20,709 bases of DNA, taken from the IMG/VR virus record IMGVR_UViG_2690316109_000015. The stretch is one strand, 5' to 3'. The notes under the pieces are model-generated. The model had not been told where the DNA came from and did no database searches. It saw only the letters and a list, made by a program, of their open reading frames with translations. The translations under genes were made by a program, and so were the position numbers. Below, piece by piece: positions 1 through 16,661 of the stretch (the first letter of the stretch is position 1; every line of letters starts with the position of its first letter). Origin of the DNA: a virus. Its lineage: Duplodnaviria > Heunggongvirae > Uroviricota > Caudoviricetes.

Positions 1-16
1 GAAGTCGCTGTCGTTC

Positions 17-490
17 TCAAAATCGGTGGAGCTGCATGACAAAGTCATCGGGCATTATCTGAACATAAAACACTATCAATAAGTTGGAGTCATTACCCGT
101 GCCTTGTTCCAGAATCCGCACTTTAATATTGGGATACAGCTCATTAAATTTACCGATTGCCAGCGGTAAAAAATAAAATACTGCGGTCGGAATACACGCT
201 AACGTCACCATACCACGATGATAAGCATTCATATCACGAATATTAAAAAGCGTTTCATCGAATTTCTTTATTAATTCCCGCGCCTCCGGGAGCAACCTTT
301 TTCCTGCTTTTGTTAACGTAACCTTGCGAGTTGTACGCTCAAATAGTTGAATATGTAAATCTTCCTCCATCTTTTTTATTCTTCGCGTTAATGCAGGTTG
401 CGTAATATTGAGTAATTTAGCGGCATTGTTAAATGAACTGGACTCTGCCAGTATGACAAATGCCTTCATACTTGATAATTCATGCTTCAT
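17..490 (-). CDS. ybhD: LysR-family transcriptional regulator, truncated: HTH domain plus start of effector-binding domain only (about 157 aa from ATG at 490)
   Basis: N-terminal HTH typical of LysR family (FNNAAKLLNITQPALTRRIKKMEEDL); frame closes with TGA at 17-19 and both other frames also hit stops within about 20 codons, so no full-length (about 300 aa) LysR protein is encoded. Track ORF starts at an upstream TTG (553); the ATG at 488-490 (MKHELSS) is preferred. Confidence 0.55.
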   Translation of the reverse strand: MKHELSSMKAFVILAESSSFNNAAKLLNITQPALTRRIKKMEEDLHIQLFERTTRKVTLTKAGKRLLPEARELIKKFDETLFNIRDMNAYHRGMVTLACIPTAVFYFLPLAIGKFNELYPNIKVRILEQGTGNDSNLLIVFYVQIMPDDFVMQLHRF

Positions 491-673
491 TATTACTCCG
501 GAAAATGGAAGCGACGATTTTGGGTGGCTGGTCGTTAAAAATTTTAACTGCATTTAGCCAACTTAAATTAATGAAAAAATGTTATTAATCGTTGAGCTAA
601 AGTCATTAGAGATGCTTTGTCCTTAATGTAACCATATCGCAATAAGTTATGTTTTTAAATTGAGGGCATTATT

Positions 674-1726
674 ATGAAAAAAATACCCTGCGTGATGATG
701 CGAGGTGGAACCTCGAGGGGCGCGTTCTTGTTAGCGGAACATTTACCCGAAGATCAAACGCAGCGCGATAAAATATTGATGGCAATTATGGGTTCCGGTA
801 ACGATCTGGAAATTGACGGTATTGGCGGCGGTAATCCGCTGACCAGTAAAGTCGCCATTATTAGCCGTTCCAGCGATCCGCGTGCTGATGTCGATTATCT
901 GTTTGCTCAAGTTATTGTCCATGAGCAACGTGTCGATACCACGCCTAATTGTGGCAATATGCTGTCTGGTGTTGGGGCATTCGCCATTGAAAATGGTTTG
1001 ATTGCAGCGACTTCACCAGTTACCCGCGTACGTATCCGCAACGTCAATACTGGTACGTTCATCGAAGCTGATGTGCAAACGCCAAATGGTGTTGTCGAGT
1101 ACGAGGGTAGCGCCAGAATTGACGGCGTACCGGGTACTGCCGCACCGGTTGCGCTCACTTTCCTGAATGCCGCCGGAACCAAAACCGGAAAAGTCTTCCC
1201 GACTGATAATCAGATTGATTATTTTGACGATGTCCCGGTGACCTGTATCGATATGGCGATGCCAGTCGTCATTATTCCGGCTGAATATCTGGGAAAAACA
1301 GGTTATGAATTACCGGCGGAACTGGATGCCGACAAAGCATTATTAGCACGCATTGAATCTATCCGTCTACAAGCGGGTAAAGCAATGGGCTTAGGTGATG
1401 TCAGTAATATGGTTATCCCTAAACCTGTGCTTATTTCTCCAGCGCAGAAAGGCGGGGCAATTAATGTACGTTATTTTATGCCGCATTCTTGCCATCGCGC
1501 GCTGGCGATAACCGGTGCTATTGCTATTTCCAGTAGTTGTGCATTGGAAGGCACCGTCACCCGACAAATCGTCCCTTCTGTAGGATACGGCAATATCAAT
1601 ATTGAACACCCCAGTGGTGCGCTCGACGTTCATTTAAGTAATGAAGGTCAGGATGCCACGACGTTACGCGCATCTGTTATTCGGACGACCAGAAAAATAT
1701 TTTCCGGTGAAGTTTATCTTCCCTGA
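674..1726 (+). CDS. ybhH: PrpF/AcnD-accessory family putative isomerase (350 aa)
   Basis: 350-aa ORF, ATG preceded by GAGGG at 7 nt; length and sequence match my recollection of E. coli YbhH; genomic context ybhD-ybhH-ybhI-ybhJ. Confidence 0.8.
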   Translation: MKKIPCVMMRGGTSRGAFLLAEHLPEDQTQRDKILMAIMGSGNDLEIDGIGGGNPLTSKVAIISRSSDPRADVDYLFAQVIVHEQRVDTTPNCGNMLSGVGAFAIENGLIAATSPVTRVRIRNVNTGTFIEADVQTPNGVVEYEGSARIDGVPGTAAPVALTFLNAAGTKTGKVFPTDNQIDYFDDVPVTCIDMAMPVVIIPAEYLGKTGYELPAELDADKALLARIESIRLQAGKAMGLGDVSNMVIPKPVLISPAQKGGAINVRYFMPHSCHRALAITGAIAISSSCALEGTVTRQIVPSVGYGNINIEHPSGALDVHLSNEGQDATTLRASVIRTTRKIFSGEVYLP

Positions 1727-1801
1727 AAAAATTCGTTGTCAGGATAAGGACAATCAATAAAGGACTTCTGTATGAGTCATACAGAAAGAACAGGATTTTA
1801 A

Positions 1802-3235
1802 ATGAATAAGAAATCGTTATGGAAGCTAATTCTGATATTAGCGATCCCATGTATTATTGGTTTTATGCCAGCTCCGGCAGGATTAAGCGAACTGGCGTGG
1901 GTGCTTTTTGGTATTTACCTGGCGGCCATTGTGGGTCTGGTTATCAAGCCTTTCCCGGAACCTGTCGTACTGTTAATTGCCGTTGCTGCCTCAATGGTGG
2001 TGGTCGGTAACTTATCCGACGGTGCGTTTAAGACCACCGCCGTATTAAGCGGTTACTCTTCAGGTACTACCTGGCTGGTGTTCTCGGCGTTTACCTTAAG
2101 CGCCGCATTTGTGACCACCGGTTTAGGTAAACGTATTGCCTATCTGCTGATTGGTAAAATCGGTAACACCACGCTGGGTCTGGGTTACGTTACGGTATTC
2201 CTCGATCTGGTACTGGCTCCGGCAACACCGTCTAACACCGCGCGTGCGGGCGGCATTGTGTTACCGATCATCAACAGCGTGGCGGTGGCTTTGGGGTCCG
2301 AACCGGAAAAAAGTCCGCGTCGTGTCGGACATTACCTGATGATGTCCATTTACATGGTCACCAAAACCACCAGCTATATGTTCTTTACCGCAATGGCGGG
2401 GAACATTCTGGCGCTGAAAATGATCAACGACATTCTGCACCTGCAAATTAGCTGGGGTGGATGGGCGCTGGCCGCCGGATTGCCGGGCATCATTATGCTG
2501 CTGGTCACCCCGCTGGTAATTTACACCATGTATCCACCAGAAATTAAAAAGGTGGATAACAAAACCATCGCTAAAGCGGGCCTTGCCGAACTGGGACCGA
2601 TGAAAATCCGCGAAAAAATGCTGCTCGGTGTCTTTGTGCTGGCGCTACTGGGCTGGATTTTCAGTAAGTCTCTGGGGGTTGATGAATCCACTGTGGCAAT
2701 CGTTGTTATGGCGACCATGCTGCTGCTGGGTATCGTTACCTGGGAAGACGTGGTTAAAAATAAAGGCGGCTGGAATACCTTAATCTGGTACGGCGGTATT
2801 ATCGGATTAAGCTCCTTATTATCGAAAGTTAAATTCTTCGAATGGTTAGCTGAAGTCTTTAAAAATAACCTGGCATTTGATGGTCACGGTAACGCTGCTT
2901 TCTTCGTTATTATTTTCCTCAGCATTATCGTGCGTTATTTCTTCGCTTCCGGTAGTGCCTATATCGTTGCTATGTTACCGGTATTTGCCATGCTGGCGAA
3001 CGTCTCCGGCGCACCGTTAATGTTAACCGCGCTGGCACTGTTGTTCTCCAACTCCTATGGCGGCATGGTTACTCACTATGGCGGCGCGGCAGGTCCGGTC
3101 ATCTTTGGCGTGGGTTATAACGATATTAAATCCTGGTGGTTGGTCGGTGCGGTACTGACGATATTAACCTTCCTGGTGCATATCACCCTCGGCGTGTGGT
3201 GGTGGAATATGCTGATCGGCTGGAACATGCTGTAA
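1802..3235 (+). CDS. ybhI: DASS-family (divalent anion:Na+ symporter-like) inner membrane transporter (477 aa)
   Basis: 477-aa ORF, strongly hydrophobic with many predicted TM segments and Gly/Ala-rich helices; matches recollection of YbhI; AGGA upstream of ATG. Confidence 0.8.
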   Translation: MNKKSLWKLILILAIPCIIGFMPAPAGLSELAWVLFGIYLAAIVGLVIKPFPEPVVLLIAVAASMVVVGNLSDGAFKTTAVLSGYSSGTTWLVFSAFTLSAAFVTTGLGKRIAYLLIGKIGNTTLGLGYVTVFLDLVLAPATPSNTARAGGIVLPIINSVAVALGSEPEKSPRRVGHYLMMSIYMVTKTTSYMFFTAMAGNILALKMINDILHLQISWGGWALAAGLPGIIMLLVTPLVIYTMYPPEIKKVDNKTIAKAGLAELGPMKIREKMLLGVFVLALLGWIFSKSLGVDESTVAIVVMATMLLLGIVTWEDVVKNKGGWNTLIWYGGIIGLSSLLSKVKFFEWLAEVFKNNLAFDGHGNAAFFVIIFLSIIVRYFFASGSAYIVAMLPVFAMLANVSGAPLMLTALALLFSNSYGGMVTHYGGAAGPVIFGVGYNDIKSWWLVGAVLTILTFLVHITLGVWWWNMLIGWNML

Positions 3236-3249
3236 ATATTCTCGTCATA

Positions 3250-3346
3250 CTTCAAGTTGCATGTGCTGCGTCTGCGTTCGCTCACCCCAGTCACTTACTT
3301 ATGTAAGCTCCTGGGGATTCACTCGCTTGTCGCCTTCCTGCAACTC
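3250..3346. repeat. ERIC/IRU-like enterobacterial repetitive intergenic element
   Basis: Contains cgctcaccccagtcacttacttatgtaagctcctggggattcac, the reverse complement of the ERIC core as I recall it (AAGTAAGTGACTGGGGTGAGCG), flanked by inverted gttgca/tgcaac ends. Confidence 0.6.
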
Positions 3347-3417
3347 AAATTATTTAGAGTATATCCATTTATTATCTTTCTGCGCACTTCACGGTGCGCA
3401 GATATCTGGAGCATTTG

Positions 3418-5679
3418 ATGATCAAGTTATCTGACAAAGGCGTGTTTCTCGCCAGTAATAACGAAATAATTGCTGAAGAACATTTCACCGGCGAAATTAA
3501 AAAAGAAGAAGCCAAAAAAGGCACTATTGCCTGGTCTATTCTCTCTTCGCATAATACGTCCGGAAATATGGATAAACTTAAAATTAAGTTTGATTCATTA
3601 GCCTCTCACGATATTACCTTTGTTGGTATTGTACAGACCGCTAAAGCGTCCGGTATGGAACGTTTCCCGCTGCCGTATGTGCTGACCAACTGCCATAACT
3701 CACTCTGCGCCGTCGGCGGCACCATTAACGGTGATGACCATGTTTTTGGTTTATCGGCAGCTCAGCGTTATGGCGGTATTTTTGTGCCTCCGCATATTGC
3801 GGTCATCCATCAATATATGCGTGAGATGATGGCAGGCGGCGGCAAAATGATCCTCGGGTCAGACAGCCACACCCGTTACGGTGCATTAGGGACAATGGCA
3901 GTCGGTGAGGGCGGTGGTGAGTTGGTAAAACAGCTGCTTAATGACACCTGGGATATCGACTATCCGGGAGTTGTTGCGGTGCATCTGACCGGAAAACCAG
4001 CGCCGTATGTGGGGCCGCAGGATGTGGCGCTGGCTATCATTGGCGCGGTGTTCAAAAACGGTTACGTCAAAAACAAAGTCATGGAGTTCGTTGGACCGGG
4101 CGTTAGCGCGCTCTCTACCGATTTCCGTAACAGCGTTGACGTGATGACCACGGAAACCACCTGTTTAAGCTCCGTCTGGCAAACTGATGAAGAAGTGCAT
4201 AACTGGCTGGCGCTGCACGGTCGCGGCCAGGATTACTGCCAGCTTAACCCTCAACCGATGGCGTACTACGATGGCTGCATCAGCGTTGATTTAAGCGCCA
4301 TCAAACCAATGATTGCGCTGCCGTTCCACCCGAGCAACGTGTATGAAATCGACACACTGAACCAGAACCTGACCGACATTCTGCGTGAGATTGAAATTGA
4401 GTCCGAACGCGTGGCGCACGGTAAAGCCAAACTCTCGCTGCTGGATAAAGTGGAAAATGGTCGCCTGAAAGTGCAGCAGGGGATTATCGCGGGCTGTTCT
4501 GGCGGTAACTACGAAAACGTCATCGCGGCGGCGAATGCACTGCGCGGTCAATCCTGTGGCAATGACACCTTCTCGCTGGCAGTTTACCCGTCATCACAGC
4601 CGGTGTTTATGGATCTCGCCAAAAAAGGTGTGGTAGCAGATTTGATTGGCGCAGGCGCAATCATCAGAACCGCGTTCTGCGGCCCATGCTTTGGCGCGGG
4701 CGATACGCCAATCAACAACGGTTTGAGTATTCGCCACACCACGCGTAACTTCCCGAACCGCGAAGGCTCTAAGCCAGCTAATGGGCAGATGTCAGCGGTG
4801 GCGTTGATGGACGCTCGTTCTATCGCTGCGACTGCGGCAAACGGTGGCTATTTAACCTCTGCCAGCGAACTTGATTGCTGGGACAACGTGCCGGAGTACG
4901 CCTTCGATGTAACGCCGTATAAAAACCGTGTTTATCAGGGCTTTGTGAAAGGGGCAACTCAGCAACCGCTGATTTACGGACCGAACATTAAAGACTGGCC
5001 GGAATTGGGTGCGCTGACTGACAATATCGTCCTGAAAGTGTGCTCGAAGATCCTCGACGAAGTGACCACCACCGACGAACTGATTCCTTCCGGTGAAACC
5101 TCTTCTTATCGTTCAAATCCGATTGGTCTGGCGGAGTTTACCCTGTCACGCCGCGATCCCGGTTATGTTGGCAGAAGTAAAGCGACTGCTGAGCTGGAAA
5201 ATCAGCGTCTGGCGGGGAATGTCAGCGAGCTGACAGAGGTGTTTGCGCGCATTAAGCAGATTGCTGGTCAGGAGCATATTGATCCGCTGCAAACTGAAAT
5301 TGGCAGCATGGTATATGCGGTGAAACCAGGCGATGGTTCTGCGCGTGAACAGGCGGCGAGCTGCCAGCGTGTGATTGGCGGTCTGGCGAATATTGCCGAA
5401 GAGTACGCGACTAAACGCTACCGTTCTAACGTCATCAACTGGGGGATGTTACCGCTGCAGATGGCGGAAGTGCCAACCTTTGAAGTGGGGGATTACATTT
5501 ACATCCCTGGCATTAAAGCGGCGCTGGATAATCCGGGTACGACGTTTAAAGGTTATGTGATCCATGAAGATGCGCCGGTAACGGAAATTACGCTCTATAT
5601 GGAAAGTCTGACTGCTGAAGAGCGCGAGATTATCAAGGCGGGTAGTTTGATTAACTTCAATAAAAACCGTCAGATGTAA
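3418..5679 (+). CDS. ybhJ: Aconitase-family protein (putative hydratase/dehydratase), 753 aa from ATG at 3418
   Basis: Aconitase-type motifs [14 protein letters not shown] and [10 protein letters not shown] (Cys ligands); the track ORF begins at GTG 3394, but ATG 3418 has GGAG at 6-nt spacing and gives 753 aa. Confidence 0.8.
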
Positions 5680-5695
5680 AAAGCGCCATGTGAAT

Positions 5696-5898
<203 letters not shown>

Positions 5899-5912
5899 AT
5901 AGTTAATTGCTC

Positions 5913-7196
5913 TTACTTCTTCGCCTCTGCAACCACTTTACTACCCACGCCGCGGTTATTGTATTCCCACATGCGGTTGTAGTTAGTGTCATTCAGATTG
6001 CGCTGTATTTCGTCGTTATCATCTACGCTGCCGGTATTACCCGCAAACGGACGATTAGAGATCACCGCATCGGCCCACGGTTTAGCCGTGTTAAAACCTT
6101 CGTTGATGGCGCTATCACGGATCACCACCTGACCGTTGGTATTGGCATCAACATCCAGCGAGCGGCCCAGTTGCGCCACGCCATCACCGGAAGCATTGAA
6201 ACGGCTGTTTACAGCGAGGAAACCGTAGTAAATGTTGGACAGCGTTGCCGGTGCAAACACATACGCTTCTTGCTGAGTACGTGAGTTCACCACGCGGAAT
6301 TCGGTGTTATCGAACACCACTGCGCCGCGACCAGAAACGATATCCACATCCCCTTCAATGTAGCTGTTGGTCACCAGCGTACGCGGCTGACGATTCGTTT
6401 CCAGACGGTTCTGCACACCGCTGTTGGTGACAAAGAAGGTGTTCTGACGACCGAGAATGTTCACGTTGTTAATCTGTACCTGGTCACCATCAGTACGCAG
6501 TGCCACCGCCGGATGGTTACCCGCATCTACGCTATCGCCCAGCGTGTTTTCGATGGTCAGGTTTTGCAGTTGCAGGCCATTGTTTTGTGACCAGAAGACC
6601 GCTGAACAGAGAACACCGATACTGTTGCTGCGTTTGCTCTGGCAGCTATCGTACATATACCACGCTGGTTTACCTGGCATATATTTGCCGCGCGGGTTGA
6701 CGTCGTGACGCCAGTCGGCAGGGCTCATGCCCCCATCAAGGGAAAGCCCAATCTTCACATCAATCGGTTTTTCACCTGTACCGTACAGAGTAATTCCACC
6801 CGGAGCGGCAGGAACATATACCGTTCCCTGATACTCACCTGGCATCACGGCAATATACTGGCGCTTGTTGGTACGCTTGATAATTGCCGCATCTACCGCC
6901 GCCTGAATCGTGGTATGCGTTACACCTTGAGTACCCGCCGGGCCGACAACAAAGTCAGGTTGCGCAGGCAGGGTAATCGGGGAAGGATTCCACGCTGCAG
7001 CACCTGGTGTCAGGGATGCAAAATAGTGTTGAGCATCGAAATTCTGCGCTTCTTTTGCCGACAGAATCGGGCGAGAAGAGGTACCAGGCGCGGTTTGATC
7101 AGAAGGACGTTGATCGGGTGGTGTTGAGCTACAGGCGGTCAGCGTCACGCCAAAAGCCAATGCCAGCGCCAGACGGGAAACTGAAAATGTGTTCAC
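5913..7196 (-). CDS. ybhC: Outer-membrane lipoprotein, pectinesterase-like / acyl-CoA thioesterase family (427 aa)
   Basis: GTG start with GGAG at 6 nt; signal peptide with lipobox LTAC|SS; gene immediately precedes the lambda attB position as in E. coli. Confidence 0.8.
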   Translation of the reverse strand: MNTFSVSRLALALAFGVTLTACSSTPPDQRPSDQTAPGTSSRPILSAKEAQNFDAQHYFASLTPGAAAWNPSPITLPAQPDFVVGPAGTQGVTHTTIQAAVDAAIIKRTNKRQYIAVMPGEYQGTVYVPAAPGGITLYGTGEKPIDVKIGLSLDGGMSPADWRHDVNPRGKYMPGKPAWYMYDSCQSKRSNSIGVLCSAVFWSQNNGLQLQNLTIENTLGDSVDAGNHPAVALRTDGDQVQINNVNILGRQNTFFVTNSGVQNRLETNRQPRTLVTNSYIEGDVDIVSGRGAVVFDNTEFRVVNSRTQQEAYVFAPATLSNIYYGFLAVNSRFNASGDGVAQLGRSLDVDANTNGQVVIRDSAINEGFNTAKPWADAVISNRPFAGNTGSVDDNDEIQRNLNDTNYNRMWEYNNRGVGSKVVAEAKK

Positions 7197-7229
7197 AGGT
7201 TGCTCCGGGCTATGAAATAGAAAAATGAA

Positions 7230-7330
7230 TCCGTTGAAGCCTGCTTTTTTATACTAAGTTGGCATTATAAAAAAGCATTGCTTATCAATTTGTTGCAACG
7301 AACAGGTCACTATCAGTCAAAATAAAATCA
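7230..7330. other. attL junction: host B arm, 15-bp lambda core (7243-7257) and P' arm with Int arm-type sites
   Basis: Exact core GCTTTTTTATACTAA at 7243-7257, followed by gttggcattataaaaaagcattgcttatcaatttgttgcaacgaacaggtcactatcagtcaaaataaaatcatt (lambda P' arm as I recall it); int starts right after. Confidence 0.9.
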
Positions 7331-8401
7331 TTATTTGATTTCAATTTTGTCCCACTCCCTGCCTCTGTCATCACGATACTGTGATGCCATGGTGTCCGAC
7401 TTATGCCCGAGAAGATGTTGAGCAAATTTATCGCTTATCTGCTTCTCATAGAGTCTTGCAGACAAACTGCGCAACTCGTGAAAGGTTGGCGGATCCCCTT
7501 CGAAGGAGAGACCTGATGCTTTTCGTGCGCGCATAAAATACCTTGATACTGTGCCGGATGAAAGCGGTTCACGACGAGTAGATGCAATTATGGTTTCTCC
7601 GCCAAGAATCTTTTTGCATTTATCAAGTGTTTCCTTCATTGATATCCCGAGAGCATCAACATGCAATGTTGTTGGGATGGCAATTTTTACGCCTGTTTTG
7701 CTTTGCTCGACATAAAGATATCCATCTACGATATCAGACCACTTCATTTCGCATAAATCACCAACTCGCTGCCCGGTAACAACAGCCAGTTCCATTGCAA
7801 GTCTGAGCCAACATGGTGATGATTCTGCTGCTTGATAAATTTTCAGGTATTCGTCAGCCGTAAGTCTTGATCTCCTTACCTCTGATTTTGCAGCGCGAGT
7901 GGCTGCGACCGGGTTTGTTGTTATATGGCCTTCAGCTATAGCCTCTCGGAATGCATCGCTCAGTGTTGATCTGATTAACTTGGCTGATGCCGCCTTGCCC
8001 TCGTCTATGTATCCATTGAGCATTGCCGCAATTTCTTTTGTGGTGATGTCTTCAAGTGGAGCATCAGGCAGACCCCTCCTTATTGCTTTAATTTTGCTCA
8101 TGTAATTTATGAGTGTCTTCTGCTTGATTCCTCTGCTGGCCAGGATTTTTTCGTAGCGATCAAGCCATGAATGTAACGTAACGGAATTATCACTGTTGAT
8201 TCTCGCTGTCAGAGGCTTGTGTTTGTGTCCTGAAAATAACTCAATGTTGGCCTGTATGGCTTCAGTGATTGCGATTCGCCTGTCTCTGCCTAATCCAAAC
8301 TCTTTACCCGTCCTTGGGTCCCTGTAGCAGTAATATCCATTGTTTCTTATATAAAGGTTAGGGGGTAAATCCCGGCGCTCATGACTTCGCCTTCTTCCCA
8401 T
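7331..8401 (-). CDS. int: Tyrosine integrase, lambda Int (356 aa)
   Basis: 356 aa; sequence recognised as essentially lambda Int (MGRRRSHERRDLPPNLYIRNNGYYCYRDPRTGKEF... HELRSLSARLYEKQ... LLGHKSD...); adjacent to attL. Confidence 0.95.
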   Translation of the reverse strand: MGRRRSHERRDLPPNLYIRNNGYYCYRDPRTGKEFGLGRDRRIAITEAIQANIELFSGHKHKPLTARINSDNSVTLHSWLDRYEKILASRGIKQKTLINYMSKIKAIRRGLPDAPLEDITTKEIAAMLNGYIDEGKAASAKLIRSTLSDAFREAIAEGHITTNPVAATRAAKSEVRRSRLTADEYLKIYQAAESSPCWLRLAMELAVVTGQRVGDLCEMKWSDIVDGYLYVEQSKTGVKIAIPTTLHVDALGISMKETLDKCKKILGGETIIASTRREPLSSGTVSRYFMRARKASGLSFEGDPPTFHELRSLSARLYEKQISDKFAQHLLGHKSDTMASQYRDDRGREWDKIEIK

Positions 8402-12655: not shown

Positions 12656-12862
12656 TTAGTGATTCAGGCCGTTACCGCGTCCGTCGAGAAAAACTTCTAC
12701 GAGCAAATCACGGGTATAAGTGCGCTCGATGCCGCGATGCAGATAAAGCCGTCCGCGTAAATTAGCTGATGCAGTCCAGGTACCATCTTTGTGTTTGACC
12801 AGCATTCCTGGCATGACCGCGCCGCGATTAACGGTCTGTGTTCCGTAATGTTGATGAACCAT
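12656..12862 (-). CDS. Small protein (68 aa) in the kil position upstream of gam
   Basis: ATG at 12860-12862 with AGGAG at 5-nt spacing; MVHQHYGTQTVNRGAVMPGMLVKHKDGTWTASANLRGRLYLHRGIERTYTRDLLVEVFLDGRGNGLNH; assignment is by position only. Confidence 0.4.
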   Translation of the reverse strand: MVHQHYGTQTVNRGAVMPGMLVKHKDGTWTASANLRGRLYLHRGIERTYTRDLLVEVFLDGRGNGLNH

Positions 12863-13129
12863 AAAAACTCCTGCCCGTAAGCTGGGCTGCTGAACATATA
12901 GAGACTTCTGCGCGTATTCAGGCGGTGGATGGCCGCCGGTTGTCATAACTAAGCCGCCTCGTTGAAGCGACTGAGGTATGAAATGTTGAGTTAATTTCAG
13001 CTGGTCACACCGACGTTCACGCGTCCGTTTCACCCCTCGCACTCCCCGAAGCCTGCTGAAATTCAAACTGCGGATCTAAGCGGTCATCGCAACGGTGAAT
13101 CAGGTGGTTGCCGTATCGTTGTGTTGTTG

Positions 13130-13190
13130 CGATATGGTGATAATAGCTATTGCTATTGGTGATATCAATACTTATTGCTATTGACTGATG
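13130..13190 (-). promoter_or_regulatory. Candidate leftward early promoter (pL-like) with two operator dyads (oL)
   Basis: Minus-strand -35 TTGATA (plus-strand 13163-13168), 17-bp spacer, -10 TATTAT (13140-13145). Two 16-bp dyads AATAGC-N4-GCTATT at 13142-13157 and (one mismatch) 13167-13182; the same motif recurs at oR. Confidence 0.5.
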
Positions 13191-13308
13191 TGTTTTGATA
13201 TTAAATGTTTGATAGCAAAAAGAATTAATTTTGTGACTTGCATCGCATAGCGATAACTGAAGCAGGGATGTGGTGGTTTTTTGAGCGGTGTGTGATGAGG
13301 GGAGGGGA

Positions 13309-13336
13309 CAAAAGAAAACCCGGCACGGTGGCCGGG
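13309..13336 (-). terminator. Rho-independent terminator ending the repressor/cargo operon (tImm-like)
   Basis: Minus strand CCCGGC-caccgt-GCCGGG followed by TTTTCTTTTG, starting 26 nt after the TAG stop (13363-13365) of the 268-aa gene. Confidence 0.65.
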
Positions 13337-13362
13337 TTATTAATTAAATTAGTCAGTTTTTT

Positions 13363-14169
13363 CTACTGTAACATAGAGGCAGCATTCAGCATCTTTTCGT
13401 AATATGAACGCATGTCTTCTTTGCTATATGCGTTGATAAGATTATCAGCGTGTTTTTCCAGTAGATTTAGCTGCTGTTTTGCTGACTTTTCTTGTGCTGT
13501 CGTTTCAGCGGCAAAAATTACAAATGAATCAATATTTGAATTGTATAATTCGTAGGCTTTAGTAATTGTTAAAACACTTATCGCAGCTTCACCCATTTGT
13601 TTTTTTATATTTTCAGAACGAAAATCTAATGTTTCTGTAAGATGGTATTTGCCATTTTTTAACAAAAAATCTGCAACTAACCCTTCTTCATTACTAATTG
13701 GATAATTAGCTACGATTTTATGTTGGGAAAGATCTTCAAAATACTTACTGAAAATTCCATGTTGTATAAAGGTGGATTTTAATTCAGAAAAAACCTTTTT
13801 TTTCAACTGTTTATGTGGCTGTTTTTGTGGGTTTACTAACCGATTCATTAGATCAGTAACTTTAGCTTCGTAATCTTCGTTGGCTTGAAGAGTGAACATG
13901 CCAAATGACGATAACGATAATGCTCCCTTAAAAAGACAAGGAAGAAGTTCAGCATTGTTGATTTTTTGTGACAAATCAAAAAGCGAGGTCGAAAGATCCT
14001 CTAAGTAATCTAAGGTAAGATCTTTGTCAATCGCTTTAAGTTTTGAAACTGAATTGAGCATACGTACGTCTATGTCAGAGTCATGGTAAACGATCAAACC
14101 AACGTTAATCGTTTCACCTTTCTCTAAGTTCGGTGTAACTCTGATTAAGCTGTATTTGAAAGTTTTCAA
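13363..14169 (-). CDS. Hypothetical protein (268 aa), second gene of the rex-position cargo operon; no recognisable catalytic motif
   Basis: TTG start whose first two bases overlap the upstream TGA stop (TCTTGAAAA), GGAG 8 nt upstream; AT-rich; N-terminus MKTFKYSLIRVTPNLEKGETINVGLIVYHDSD; C-terminal third predicted helical. Confidence 0.7.
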   Translation of the reverse strand: MKTFKYSLIRVTPNLEKGETINVGLIVYHDSDIDVRMLNSVSKLKAIDKDLTLDYLEDLSTSLFDLSQKINNAELLPCLFKGALSLSSFGMFTLQANEDYEAKVTDLMNRLVNPQKQPHKQLKKKVFSELKSTFIQHGIFSKYFEDLSQHKIVANYPISNEEGLVADFLLKNGKYHLTETLDFRSENIKKQMGEAAISVLTITKAYELYNSNIDSFVIFAAETTAQEKSAKQQLNLLEKHADNLINAYSKEDMRSYYEKMLNAASMLQ

Positions 14170-15014
14170 GATGTTATCTCCAGTCTTATGGCATTTAGCC
14201 TATCGATTCGCTCCTCGCTGTCCCACCACTTCAAAAAATACTCCTTATGCATTGGTGGCATCCATGCTTCAGGCATAGAGTTAAGTATATCAGATATAGC
14301 CTCAACTCCAATTTTTTCAATTTTGTCAAGGACAGATAATGCGCACTTTCTCAGATCATCAGTGTCGCCAATGAATTGTTTAGCAATCGTCCAGTTTGTT
14401 GTTGTACTGGAGTCTGTTGGTAGTATATGAGGGGTATTTCGTGGCCAGCCTATAACAAAAGAGCTTAGACTAAAATCGAATGTTTTAACTATAACATTGC
14501 CTCGGGTGTTTTCCATGTATAAGTAGTTGTTGAGGTGTCTGTCAATGTTATATACAAACTGATCAAATGCATAAATTGCCCAGAGTTGCTTCTTTAAGGA
14601 TTCAGAAGCATTTGAGAGCAAATTTATCCATTGAGGACTATTGAGACCAGATTTCCAGGCTGAAAACTCTATGCGAGAGCCAAAAACATACTCCCCATTA
14701 GCAATACACTTGAGAATTTTGCACACAGGTGTAGCGATGCCGCATTTTTCAGCTAAATTTGTGCAAAACCATTCCGCTGCCGGTACTTGAGTTGGGTTTT
14801 GTACAGGAAAAGGTGGGGTGGAGCGCATGCTTTTAACTGCATATTCCATTTCATCAGTGGCAATAGCGAAACCAGAAAGGTGTGCTGTGCCTAAGCTTGA
14901 AGGTGTATATTCATGAAATTCTAATTCAAACAAACTTCCTTGCTCTGGTTTCACTTCATCAGTGTTTGACTCTTGTTCTTTCGTCATCAACTTTTTTCCC
15001 CAAATCGAAGACAT
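14166..15014 (-). CDS. Kinase-like protein (282 aa) with HipA/PI3K-type catalytic-loop signature; first gene of the rex-position cargo operon
   Basis: ATG at 15014 with AGAGG at 5-nt spacing, 46 nt downstream of the cI-like stop; motif NIDRHLNN (D-R-H-x-x-N) followed about 20 residues later by KTFDFS (DFG-like); AT-rich. Confidence 0.7.
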   Translation of the reverse strand: MSSIWGKKLMTKEQESNTDEVKPEQGSLFELEFHEYTPSSLGTAHLSGFAIATDEMEYAVKSMRSTPPFPVQNPTQVPAAEWFCTNLAEKCGIATPVCKILKCIANGEYVFGSRIEFSAWKSGLNSPQWINLLSNASESLKKQLWAIYAFDQFVYNIDRHLNNYLYMENTRGNVIVKTFDFSLSSFVIGWPRNTPHILPTDSSTTTNWTIAKQFIGDTDDLRKCALSVLDKIEKIGVEAISDILNSMPEAWMPPMHKEYFLKWWDSEERIDRLNAIRLEITS

Positions 15015-15060
15015 GCGGACCTCTTAAATTTGAACAACATCATAATGATTAGCTAATCCG

Positions 15061-15753
15061 CTACCCATGCTTCCTATACGTCTGCGGCATGCTCCCAATA
15101 ACCTTACCGAAGATGAACACCCGGTTCATCTCGTCTTTCTCGATCGGGTCCCACGGTGAGTAGCTCTTGTTATCAGAGATAACCAGCAGCTTATCCTTCA
15201 TCATTTGCAGACGCTTTACATGGGCTGTGTCGTCGTACAGAAACGCATAGATACCATCACCGTCGAAAGATTTAACCGTGATATCAACGAACAGCAGATC
15301 ACCTGGTTCGATCGTTCCTGACATGCTGTCACCACGCACGTTAATGATGCGGATATTTTCCGCCTTCCTGCCATCGAACATGTGACGAGCATCGTCAAAC
15401 GAGTACTCAACCGAGCGTAGAACTTCTACAAACTCACGGTTGATTACACCCGGCCCGGCACTGACTTCTATATCAAGAACGTCAATTTTGAAGTATTTGG
15501 AATGGCTGACAGCAGGCTTCCCTGATTGTTGACCGTCATTTCTCATCGGGCCTATGCCTGATGAGAGCCATTCTGTTCGAACACCCAATGCATTAGCTAT
15601 TTCAACAATTTTTGTTGAGCCGCGCGCGTTGCCGCTTGTCAGTCTCCAGATTGTGGGTTGAGCTACGCCAGACGCCTTTGCAAGAGCGCCTTGAGACATT
15701 CCAGATTGTTCCATCGCTAGGTTTAAGCGATCAGCAAGAGTTTCTTTTTTCAT
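15061..15753 (-). CDS. CI-like prophage repressor: N-terminal XRE-type HTH, C-terminal S24 (LexA-like) autopeptidase; about 230 aa from ATG 15753
   Basis: HTH MSQGALAKASGVAQPTIWRL; S24 catalytic Ser in VRGDSMSGTIEPGDLLFVD and Lys in AHVKRL; candidate Ala-Gly cleavage site (SAGPG). The track ORF starts at TTG 15789; ATG 15753 has no SD and abuts the -10 element, suggesting a leaderless transcript as for lambda cI from pRM. Not lambda cI. Confidence 0.85.
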   Translation of the reverse strand: MKKETLADRLNLAMEQSGMSQGALAKASGVAQPTIWRLTSGNARGSTKIVEIANALGVRTEWLSSGIGPMRNDGQQSGKPAVSHSKYFKIDVLDIEVSAGPGVINREFVEVLRSVEYSFDDARHMFDGRKAENIRIINVRGDSMSGTIEPGDLLFVDITVKSFDGDGIYAFLYDDTAHVKRLQMMKDKLLVISDNKSYSPWDPIEKDEMNRVFIFGKVIGSMPQTYRKHG

Positions 15754-15863
15754 AAGTTTTAATTTATACGCTTGCGTATTGATGGTCAAAACACGTTTTG
15801 CTATTGCTTGGATTAATACGCATTGCTATTATTCATTCATTGCAATACCAATAGGAATTGATA
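15754..15863. promoter_or_regulatory. Immunity switch region: divergent pRM-like and pR-like promoters with operator dyads (oR)
   Basis: Minus strand: -35 TTGACC (plus 15784-15789), then TATAAA/TAAATT ending about 7 nt before the cI-like ATG. Plus strand: -35 TTGCTT (15804-15809), 17-bp spacer, -10 TATTAT (15827-15832). Dyads: ATACGCTTGCGTAT (15766-15779) and AATACGCATTGCTATT (15815-15830). Confidence 0.55.
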
Positions 15864-16091
15864 ATGACAAATCAAACCATTCAACTCGCAATCAGTATTA
15901 CAGGTAGTCAAAAACGACTGGCAGATCTATGCGGTGTAGCCCAACCCACTGTTTGGCGTTGGCTACACGGTGGCGGAATTGATGCCCGCTATGTAATGAA
16001 AATTGTCTCAGCCACTGGTGGAAAGATTAAACCAGCAGATATTCGTCCCGACCTCGCACCATTGTTTAACGCGAGTAATTCTGCCGCCTAA
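15864..16091 (+). CDS. Cro-like small HTH regulator (75 aa from ATG 15864)
   Basis: Position immediately rightward of the repressor; HTH-like segment QKRLADLCGVAQPTVWRWLHGG; AGGA at 7-nt spacing. The track ORF begins at TTG 15858. Confidence 0.7.
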   Translation: MTNQTIQLAISITGSQKRLADLCGVAQPTVWRWLHGGGIDARYVMKIVSATGGKIKPADIRPDLAPLFNASNSAA

Positions 16092-16115: not shown

Positions 16116-16661
16116 ATGACTATGCAACCACTTACATACCAACAGACTAGCGGATTTATCCCGACTGCGGTGATAAATCGTTCTCAAATAAAACAGGTGC
16201 CAGGCCACGAAAAAATCCGTGATGCCATCCGCGCCTGGTCGGCTGTAGATAATCAGGATGTCGTTGCCGCACTCATTGTGAATGAGTATCGAGCACAGGG
16301 CGGCGGCACTATCGATTTTTCTGATGATGTCAGTCGTGCACGCCAGAAGCTGTTCCGCTTTCTCGATAACAAATTCGATTCTGAAAAATACCGAAATAAC
16401 GTGCGTGAACTGACTCCAGCAATTCTGGCAGTACTACCGCTGAAATATCGCGGCCACCTGGTTGAGCAGGATAGCTTCATGGCTCGGCTGGCTGAAATGG
16501 AAAAGGAACTCAGTGAGGCAAAACAGGCTGTCATTCTCAACGCACCACGCCACCAGAAACTGAAGGAGATGAGTGAAGGCATTGTGTCGATGTTTCGTGT
16601 GGACCCGGATTTGGCTGGTCCACTGATGGCGATGGTCACCACCATGCTGGGGGCAATATGA
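16116..16661 (+). CDS. CII-position regulator, YdaT-like (181 aa)
   Basis: Occupies the cII position between cro-like and O; segments EYRAQGGG and LTPAILAVLP resemble what I recall of Rac-prophage YdaT. Confidence 0.5.
   Translation: MTMQPLTYQQTSGFIPTAVINRSQIKQVPGHEKIRDAIRAWSAVDNQDVVAALIVNEYRAQGGGTIDFSDDVSRARQKLFRFLDNKFDSEKYRNNVRELTPAILAVLPLKYRGHLVEQDSFMARLAEMEKELSEAKQAVILNAPRHQKLKEMSEGIVSMFRVDPDLAGPLMAMVTTMLGAI

Follow-up and report, generated by a model that had tools for sequence, protein, structure and literature searches.

The element described here occupies positions 13130-15863 of IMG/VR virus record IMGVR_UViG_2690316109_000015 (Caudoviricetes), whose whole stretch of 20,709 nucleotides is referred to below as the window. 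It is a candidate immunity region, with a cI repressor gene (15061-15753, minus strand, 230 residues) that runs divergently from an adjoining cro gene (15864-16091, plus strand, 75 residues). The intergenic region between cI and cro measures 110 bp and holds three operator-like sites (oR) plus the promoters pR and pRM, and a second group of sites (oL) lies about 2.6 kb from oR, next to the promoter pL. Two cargo genes and a terminator, unmentioned in a preliminary description of the same sequence, are also within the interval.

The CI protein combines the Pfam domains HTH_3 (28.3 bits versus a cut-off of 23, residues 13-63) and Peptidase_S24 (67.2 bits), with matches to PHROG 4 and 6201. In the Protein Data Bank (PDB), its N-terminal domain matched the 434 repressor and its C-terminal domain matched UmuD. 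The cleavage motif SAGPG at residues 98-102 corresponds to Ala99-Gly100, and the catalytic dyad is formed by Ser143 (GDSMS) and Lys180 (HVKRL). The Cro protein belongs to the YdaS/Cro family (Pfam YdaS_toxin, 54.6 bits; PHROG 35), and its PDB match was to the Xfaso1 Cro structure. The PGAP annotation gives the same starts for both genes. The recognition helix of CI is GVAQPTIWRL (residues 29-38) and that of Cro is GVAQPTVWRW, the two proteins being 40% identical over 48 residues of the CI N-terminal domain (E 7e-9). Since the helix GVAQPT(I/V)WR is common to both, they are predicted to read the same sites. The 434 repressor and its Cro are likewise homologous, have similar recognition helices and read the same sites. 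The homology of Cro to the CI N-terminal domain, with the same recognition helix, distinguishes the window from lambda, whose Cro has a different fold. As a separate observation, the 3′ end of cI contains an exact HK022-type operator dyad, TGAACACCCGGTTCA, at 15114-15128, within a hairpin with 8-bp arms. This copy is limited to the E. coli variants of the CI C-terminal domain, and is probably due to chance or to coding constraint.

Three promoters were recognized. A consensus scan returned the pL-like TTGATA-17-TATTAT (13168->13140, minus strand, 10/12 matches, inferred start about 13133) and the pRM-like TTGACC-17-TAAATT (15789->15761, minus strand). The pR-like TTGCTT(15804-15809)-17-TATTAT(15827-15832) on the plus strand, with an inferred start about 15839, was read directly from the sequence. 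Conservation was counted with eight non-redundant relatives from six enterobacterial genera. Both pRM hexamers are invariant across nine aligned sequences, and the pL hexamers, as well as TTGC and TATTAT of pR, are conserved among the relatives. The positions of sites relative to the promoters, given below, were computed from the usual start positions.

Five sites of a single 16-bp family, with the common core AATA(C/G)...(C/G)TATT, were located around these promoters. At oL they are oL1 (AATAGCTATTGCTATT, 13142-13157; -24..-9 of pL, overlapping the -10) and oL2 (AATACTTATTGCTATT, 13167-13182; -49..-34 of pL, with a 2-bp overlap with the -35). At oR they are oR1 (AATACGCATTGCTATT, 15815-15830; -24..-9 of pR, overlapping the -10), oR2 (AACACGTTTTGCTATT, 15790-15805; overlapping the pR -35 at -49..-34 and abutting the pRM -35 at -52..-37) and oR3 (TATACGCTTGCGTATT, 15765-15780; -27..-12 of pRM, in the interval from its -35 to its -10). 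With starts at 15765, 15790 and 15815, the oR sites show an exact 25-bp phasing, and the spacing of oL1 and oL2 is also 25 bp. Placement is identical at both lytic promoters, O1 at -24..-9 and O2 at -49..-34, which we take to be closely like the placement in lambda. A third oL position, GATGTGTTTTGATATT at 13187-13202, is degenerate in the window, with only the right half-site kept and a score below threshold with the position weight matrix (PWM) described below; the oL alignment and PWM matches show a good operator at this position in Klebsiella, Kluyvera and Raoultella relatives. An eight-letter direct repeat, TGGTGATA, was also noticed on the transcribed strand at 13135-13142 and 13157-13164, just downstream of the pL -10 and -35. 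It is the reverse complement of TATCACCA and resembles a lambda operator half-site; its second copy is not conserved in the relatives and, for this reason, the repeat is probably a coincidence.

These results agree in large part with the preliminary description and correct it in three respects. The three copies of AATA(G/C)N-N4-GCTATT that it reported were recovered at 13142-13157, 13167-13182 and 15815-15830, its proposal that oL and oR share an operator is strengthened by the identical placement of O1 and O2 against pL and pR, and the -10 TATTAT is indeed the same in pL and pR and overlapped in each by a dyad (oL1 and oR1). The "near-identical dyads" do form one 16-bp family, but a perfect 6+4+6 dyad occurs in oL1 only, and in the other sites the arms are complementary at 4/6 positions. 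The supposedly perfect palindrome inside pRM, ATACGCTTGCGTAT, was correctly positioned (15766-15779), but it is an interrupted 6+2+6 inverted repeat with 6-bp arms around a non-self-complementary TT. The addition of one base on each side turns it into TATACGCTTGCGTATT, so it belongs to oR3. Hence, instead of one dyad and a separate palindrome, oR contains three members of the family, oR2 having been overlooked.

The recurrence of the motif was compared with dinucleotide shuffles of the sequence. The strict pattern AATASNNNNNGCTATT gave four exact matches, oL1 being counted on both strands, versus 0.03 expected. With the relaxed pattern AATAS-N6-STATT and at most one mismatch, seven matches were obtained versus 2.15 expected, a number reached by no shuffle. 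A PWM built solely from the five sites of the window (oL1, oL2, oR1-oR3) scored above 16 in the window only at oL and oR. Chance recurrence of the motif is ruled out by the shuffles together with the independent loci considered below.

Concerning the start of the repressor, the cI ATG at 15753 lies 7 nt past the pRM -10 and is not preceded by a purine-rich Shine-Dalgarno sequence, as had been described beforehand. In nine aligned sequences, the gap from the -10 to the ATG is constant in length (7 nt), variable in sequence and free of Shine-Dalgarno motifs. The same ATG is assigned by PGAP (RefSeq). The position of the -10 at 7 nt from the ATG, together with the lack of a Shine-Dalgarno, makes a leaderless cI mRNA plausible, and it is likely, judging from the sequence, that the transcript either has no leader or has a leader of 1 nt. 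In the related prophage BTP1, cI and the downstream bstA are reported to be transcribed together, as one operon, from one start site and at a high level in the lysogenic state (PMC7067206).

The alternative that cI has a leader, either because translation begins at an in-frame TTG further upstream (15789) or because the lysogenic transcript starts further upstream, is unlikely. In its favor, the reading frame stays open over the 12 codons of the corresponding extension, both in the window and in the relatives inspected by eye, and the TTG is the annotated start in the GenBank records of PhiR30_1 and BTP1. Nevertheless, the invariant -35 hexamer TTGACC of pRM, the sole good leftward promoter in oR, begins with this very TTG, and so the TTG cannot be part of the pRM transcript. 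The TTG is not preceded by a Shine-Dalgarno either, the part homologous to the 434 repressor starts at residues 6-8 as numbered from the ATG, and the ATG is the start used by PGAP and by two phage records. Moreover, the 36 nt located 5′ of the ATG are conserved in the manner of an operator and promoter, the variation being concentrated in the 7 nt adjacent to the ATG and not at third-codon positions.

An alternative to the recognition of a 16-bp dyad by a symmetric dimer is that the asymmetric repeat TTGCTATT serves as the unit, with head-to-tail or monomeric binding. The repeat occurs on the same strand in four of the five strong sites, all in one orientation, the two halves show different preferences (AATAC on the left, AATAG on the right), and oL1 is the sole perfect dyad. 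On the other hand, oR3 lacks GCTATT and yet it is the most invariant of the sites and nearly symmetric (TATACG/CGTATT), the oL sites of the relatives occur in both orientations, and the outer AATA...TATT is symmetric in every site. In addition, the CI N-terminal domain is a helix-turn-helix of the 434 type, a class that binds dyads as dimers. Altogether, an asymmetric unit is very unlikely, and the 16-bp dyad is preferred.

The immunity region is widely distributed. The exact 3.1-kb arrangement is present in 24 complete E. coli genomes, and the 5′ end of cI together with oR is found at 90% identity or more in 719/5426 complete E. coli genomes (about 13%), O157:H7 included. The CI N-terminal domain is 100% identical in the coliphages PhiR30_1, 4A7, D2 and Perceval, 88% identical in the Salmonella P22-like phages BTP1, ST104, SE1 and ST160, and 87% identical in Klebsiella phages. 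Further loci, from Kluyvera (three species), Citrobacter and Raoultella, came from a single scan of genomes representative of their species. In these loci, each of 10-12 kb, PWM scores of at least 13 were obtained only beside cI and at an oL cluster located 2-3 kb away; likewise, the top-scoring sites of the Salmonella and Klebsiella phage loci, considered with a lower PWM threshold, were at oR and oL. In the literature searched, neither the motif nor the operators of the BTP1/ST104-type immunity were found described, and a published operator map is apparently lacking.

Within the aligned regions, conservation is concentrated on the operators. At oR, 44/48 operator columns are invariant versus 12/46 of the other intergenic columns (Fisher test, 4e-11), and at oL the figures are 22/32 versus 30/123 (5e-6). 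Free variation is seen in the pR leader and in the 9 bp that separate oR2 from oR1, and oL1 is retained across all the same-immunity loci compared. All 16 positions of oR3 are invariant in nine aligned sequences, BTP1 alone deviating, by one base. With regard to this prophage, its oR differs at three positions from those of ST104, SE1 and Salfasec13b, and one of the changes converts the right half of oR3 from CGTATT to AGTATT. BTP1 is known for a very high spontaneous induction (PMC5322425), and the possible relation of the oR3 change to this property is only a lead.

The comparison with phage PhiR5_1 is informative about specificity. Its CI is 82% identical to the CI of the window, being 100% identical from residue 83 to 230 and different in the N-terminal domain; PhiR5_1 was considered as a case of the same immunity type and rejected, because the identity of CI is confined to the C-terminal domain. 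The recognition helix of the PhiR5_1 CI contains SQAAIQKI in place of AQPTIWRL, and in its Cro the helix reads SQQAVYKW instead of AQPTVWRW. Sites of the ACAACC/GGTTGT type are present in the PhiR5_1 oR, from which the AATAC/GCTATT motif is absent. A Klebsiella grimontii prophage with a related CI C-terminal domain shows the same alternative helices and also ACAACC/GGTTGT-type operators. So, the CI helix, the Cro helix and the operators change together while the C-terminal domain is kept, which ties the operators to the DNA-binding module. This sequence comparison supports the view that the operators would behave as the determinant of heteroimmunity, and the covariation seen in PhiR5_1 and K. 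grimontii thus agrees with the proposal, made in the preliminary description, that these sites define the heteroimmunity specificity of the prophage. The accompanying proposal of a lambda oR/oL logic with another specificity also held: the lambda consensus TATCACCGCCAGTGGTA, corresponding to 17-bp operators, gave no match within three mismatches, and no HK022 operators of the form TGAAC-N5-GTTCA were found in the control regions of the window. A switch of lambda or HK022 specificity was rejected by these consensus scans.

The notion that these conserved motifs serve as elements of the promoters or of a host factor, or as sites for Cro only, and not as CI operators, recurring because of a shared promoter architecture, is hardly credible: it takes into account that the sites overlap -10 and -35 hexamers with a conservation of their own, and that TATTAT is common to pL and pR, but whole 16-mers are conserved, including positions outside the hexamers, with freely diverging spacers between sites, the motif switches completely when the recognition helices of CI and Cro change and an identical C-terminal domain is kept, and oR3 is outside all the hexamers save for a 2-bp overlap with the pRM -10.

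Beside the operators, two variant sites were found to be conserved. One is AATACCAATAGGAATT at 15844-15859 (minus strand, PWM 16.8), which covers +5..+20 of pR and overlaps the Shine-Dalgarno of cro (AGGA); its CAATAC and GGAATT are conserved in 8/9 sequences, the flanking leader having diverged. The other one is GATAGCAAAAAGAATT at 13211-13226 (-78..-93 of pL), inside a conserved block upstream of pL, 13208-13232 (-99..-75), in which 19/25 columns are invariant versus 7/53 in the neighboring DNA. A core resembling the consensus for integration host factor (IHF), TATCAAACATTTA at 13201-13213 on the minus strand, overlaps the left edge of this block and is adjacent to an A/T-rich tract, the core and the block together spanning 13201-13232 (-68..-99 of pL). 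An IHF site is also present upstream of lambda pL. Accordingly, the block could be a weak auxiliary operator (oL3) or else a site for IHF, and 15844-15859 may be a fourth, weak operator, as far as its sequence can tell.

In both variant sites, the 16-mer is a hybrid: one half is canonical (ATAC/ATAGC), and the other is a fixed variant (GAATT, i.e., AATTC for AATAC). The pattern ATAS-N6-GAATT occurs in most same-immunity loci at the cro Shine-Dalgarno and upstream of oL2, with exactly those two copies in 7/9 and a single copy each in Salfasec13b and BTP1. It was absent from all three other-immunity loci checked. The window contains two further matches, both within AT-rich cargo genes. That the hybrid sites constitute a second conserved class of sites acting as weak auxiliary operators, so that the switch would have 4+3 sites in place of 3+3, is put forward only tentatively, as it is rather doubtful. 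If it were true, their possible roles would be those of a roadblock or lock on cro expression, or of a matched pair stabilizing an oL-oR loop.

Considering all these results, the interval is very probably the immC-like immunity region of a lambdoid E. coli prophage, with a lambda-style bipartite switch that has an operator specificity of its own. Several observations weigh against this interpretation or against details of it. The lambda paradigm offers no equivalent of the two conserved variant sites (15844-15859 and 13211-13226). The sites are partly symmetric and 4/5 of them share the right half TTGCTATT, so that in its strict form the model of a dimer on a dyad is an assumption. The degeneracy of the third oL position in the window means that looping between oL3 and oR3 in the style of lambda may not apply. 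The pR -35 is weak (3/6 consensus) and fell below the threshold of the promoter consensus scan. The upstream TTG (15789) stays open in frame in all relatives and is the cI start in some GenBank records, so that the assignment of the ATG start derives from promoter position and homology. Finally, the literature searched contained no binding, footprint or start-site data for this immunity type.

The interpretation as a lambda-style switch relies on the anatomy, domains, conservation and covariation presented here. For binding, occupancy order, cooperativity, pRM activation, exact start sites and CI cleavage, it follows the analogy with lambda, 434 and HK022. On this basis, CI dimers would recognize the 16-bp sites AATA(C/G)N-N4-N(C/G)TATT, and pairs of dimers on the 25-bp-spaced oL1-oL2 and oR1-oR2 would cover the -10 and -35 of pL and pR. 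CI would thereby shut off the leftward kil-gam-bet-exo operon and the rightward operon of cro, the cII-like gene, O and P. When bound to oR2, which abuts the pRM -35, CI probably activates pRM, and at high CI concentration the occupancy of oR3, inside pRM, probably represses it. The pRM transcript, starting at the cI AUG or 1 nt before it, would be a leaderless lysogenic mRNA running through the cargo pair to the terminator at 13317-13338, like the lambda transcript from cI-rexAB to tIMM. In lytic growth, Cro, with the same helix, would bind the same sites and turn pRM off, and the prophage would be induced by RecA-stimulated cleavage of CI at Ala99-Gly100.

The first cargo gene behind cI (14166-15014, minus strand; start at 14987 according to PGAP) encodes a divergent HipA-family kinase (Pfam HipA_2, 28.6-28.7 bits versus a cut-off of 27) whose homologues carry PF07804 (HipA_C) and PF20613 (HipA_2). 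An alignment of 17 homologues showed that K52, D142, N147, D149, N154 and D171 are invariant and that the catalytic loop is intact; PADLOC gave weak matches to PDC-M03A and PDC-M66A. The second cargo gene (13363-14169, minus strand), whose start overlaps the kinase stop by 4 nt, encodes a 268-residue DUF3037 protein (Pfam DUF3037, 38.5 bits versus a cut-off of 22.6; PHROG 5137). The DUF3037 match spans only the first 64 residues, and the PADLOC match to PDC-M66B is weak (E 2.6e-8). No DUF1829 domain was detected in the pair with Pfam. The G+C content of the pair is 31-41% (31-38% in the DUF3037 gene) versus about 50% in the flanks. Pairs of HipA and DUF3037 proteins are validated anti-phage systems of the toxin-antitoxin kind, DS-6/HipAD (PMC13092281), and form the effector pair of the Retron-Sda1 operon (PMC12548924). 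In those validated relatives, phage defense needs the kinase, and loss of the DUF3037 gene is toxic (PMC13092281, PMC12548924). By its sequence, the pair of the window is a predicted defense module of the HipAD/DS-6/PDC-M66 class in the position of lambda rexAB, the DUF3037 protein being the putative antitoxin or partner of the kinase.

The operon of cI and the cargo genes ends at an intrinsic terminator (13317-13338, minus strand) made up of an 8-bp stem, six pairs of which are GC, and of TTCTTTTGTC after it on the minus strand, the presumptive analogue of lambda tIMM. In PhiR5_1, an annotated HipA/HipD pair is in the same slot behind cI, and the overlapping two-gene HipAD architecture is shared with the window pair; nevertheless, the kinase of the window is only about 21% identical to PhiR5_1 HipA, and the similarity to HipD is barely detectable. 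HipAD and the PhiR phages were reportedly named by Brenes and Laub in 2025.

Concerning the early operons, the first gene of the pL operon is kil (12656-12862, minus strand), coding for an FtsZ inhibitor (PHROG 294 Kil; NCBIfam FtsZ inhibitor, E 1.8e-17; also so annotated in RefSeq). No gene for an N-like antiterminator was found between pL and kil, and the pL leader of about 270 nt (12863-13133), in which a put- or nut-like structure was sought, showed no significant fold (z -0.58 versus shuffles). In the rightward operon, the gap from cro to the cII-like gene is only 30 nt long, too short for a nutR/tR1 unit. The gene in the cII position (16122-16661, plus strand) belongs to the YdaT family (Pfam YdaT_toxin, 99 bits; PHROG 163, CII-like) and is followed by the replication genes O and P (Phage_rep_O, Phage_lambda_P). 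When the whole window was scanned with Rfam at the gathering threshold, the one match was a host naRNA4/REP element (5774-5844), and no match fell in the switch. In the left third of the window (1-8401) there are host genes coding for PrpF-like, sulfate/citrate symporter, aconitase-family and pectinesterase-like proteins, the last one read as ybhC. A lambda-type integrase gene (7331-8401, minus strand) adjoins the ybhC-like host genes and, taken together, they point to the lambda attB locus or its vicinity as the place of integration.

The likeness to lambda is thus extensive. Both have the same order and orientation of genes, an oR with three sites placed between the divergent promoters pRM and pR, O1 and O2 covering the -10 and -35 of the lytic promoters, a site abutting the pRM -35 plus another one inside pRM, and an oL (about 2.6 kb away in the window). 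Also common to the two are a cargo operon after cI that ends at a terminator (rexAB-tIMM in lambda), a -10 right before the cI ATG, a repressor of the S24 autocleaving type and a lambda-type integrase by ybhC-like genes. The pRM transcript of lambda is leaderless. Unlike those of lambda, the operators of the window are unrelated in sequence, 16 bp long and phased at strictly 25 bp; the window lacks N, has kil as the first gene of the pL operon and a YdaT-family protein in the cII position, and shows a degenerate third oL site and two additional conserved GAATT-variant sites.

Among the other classical repressors, 434 provides the best solved-structure match of the CI N-terminal domain (E about 2e-5, residues 6-67). 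Nonetheless, the N-terminal identity is about 35%, the helix has QPTIWR here versus QQSIEQ, and the site is 16 versus 14 bp long, with another half-site. The 434 operators are ACAA-N6-TTGT, with conserved outer bases and a variable center, as compared to AATAS-N6-STATT here. HK022 CI is the closest of the classical repressors compared, with 40% identity, much higher in the C-terminal domain of oligomerization and cleavage, and the Cro proteins are related too; it differs in the N-terminal domain (LKVTPKAISKWFNG) and in its oR, which contains TGAAC-N5-GTTCA and measures about 79 bp versus 110 bp here. The same immunity type, with the oR1-3 layout and the oL sites, is found in BTP1, ST104, SE1, ST160, PhiR30_1, 4A7, D2 and Perceval. 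The BTP1-type and coliphage relatives have a variable cargo slot after cI (BstA, ParA-like and others), with contents that differ from the cargo of the window, and, where the window has kil and the YdaT-like gene, the Salmonella phages code for an N-like antiterminator and a CII of the lambda type.

So, it can be said that the switch is a widespread heteroimmune member of the lambda/434/HK022 class, with cI and cro already annotated in many records. The value of the finding is practical and not conceptual, since the general understanding of such switches is unchanged. The operator map lets heteroimmunity groups be predicted from sequence, and supplies targets for footprinting and reporter work. 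It is also worth considering that BTP1, the Salmonella ST313 prophage with an unusually high spontaneous induction, is of this immunity type, and that pRM is identified, from its position in the sequence, as the promoter that would drive whatever defense cargo follows cI.

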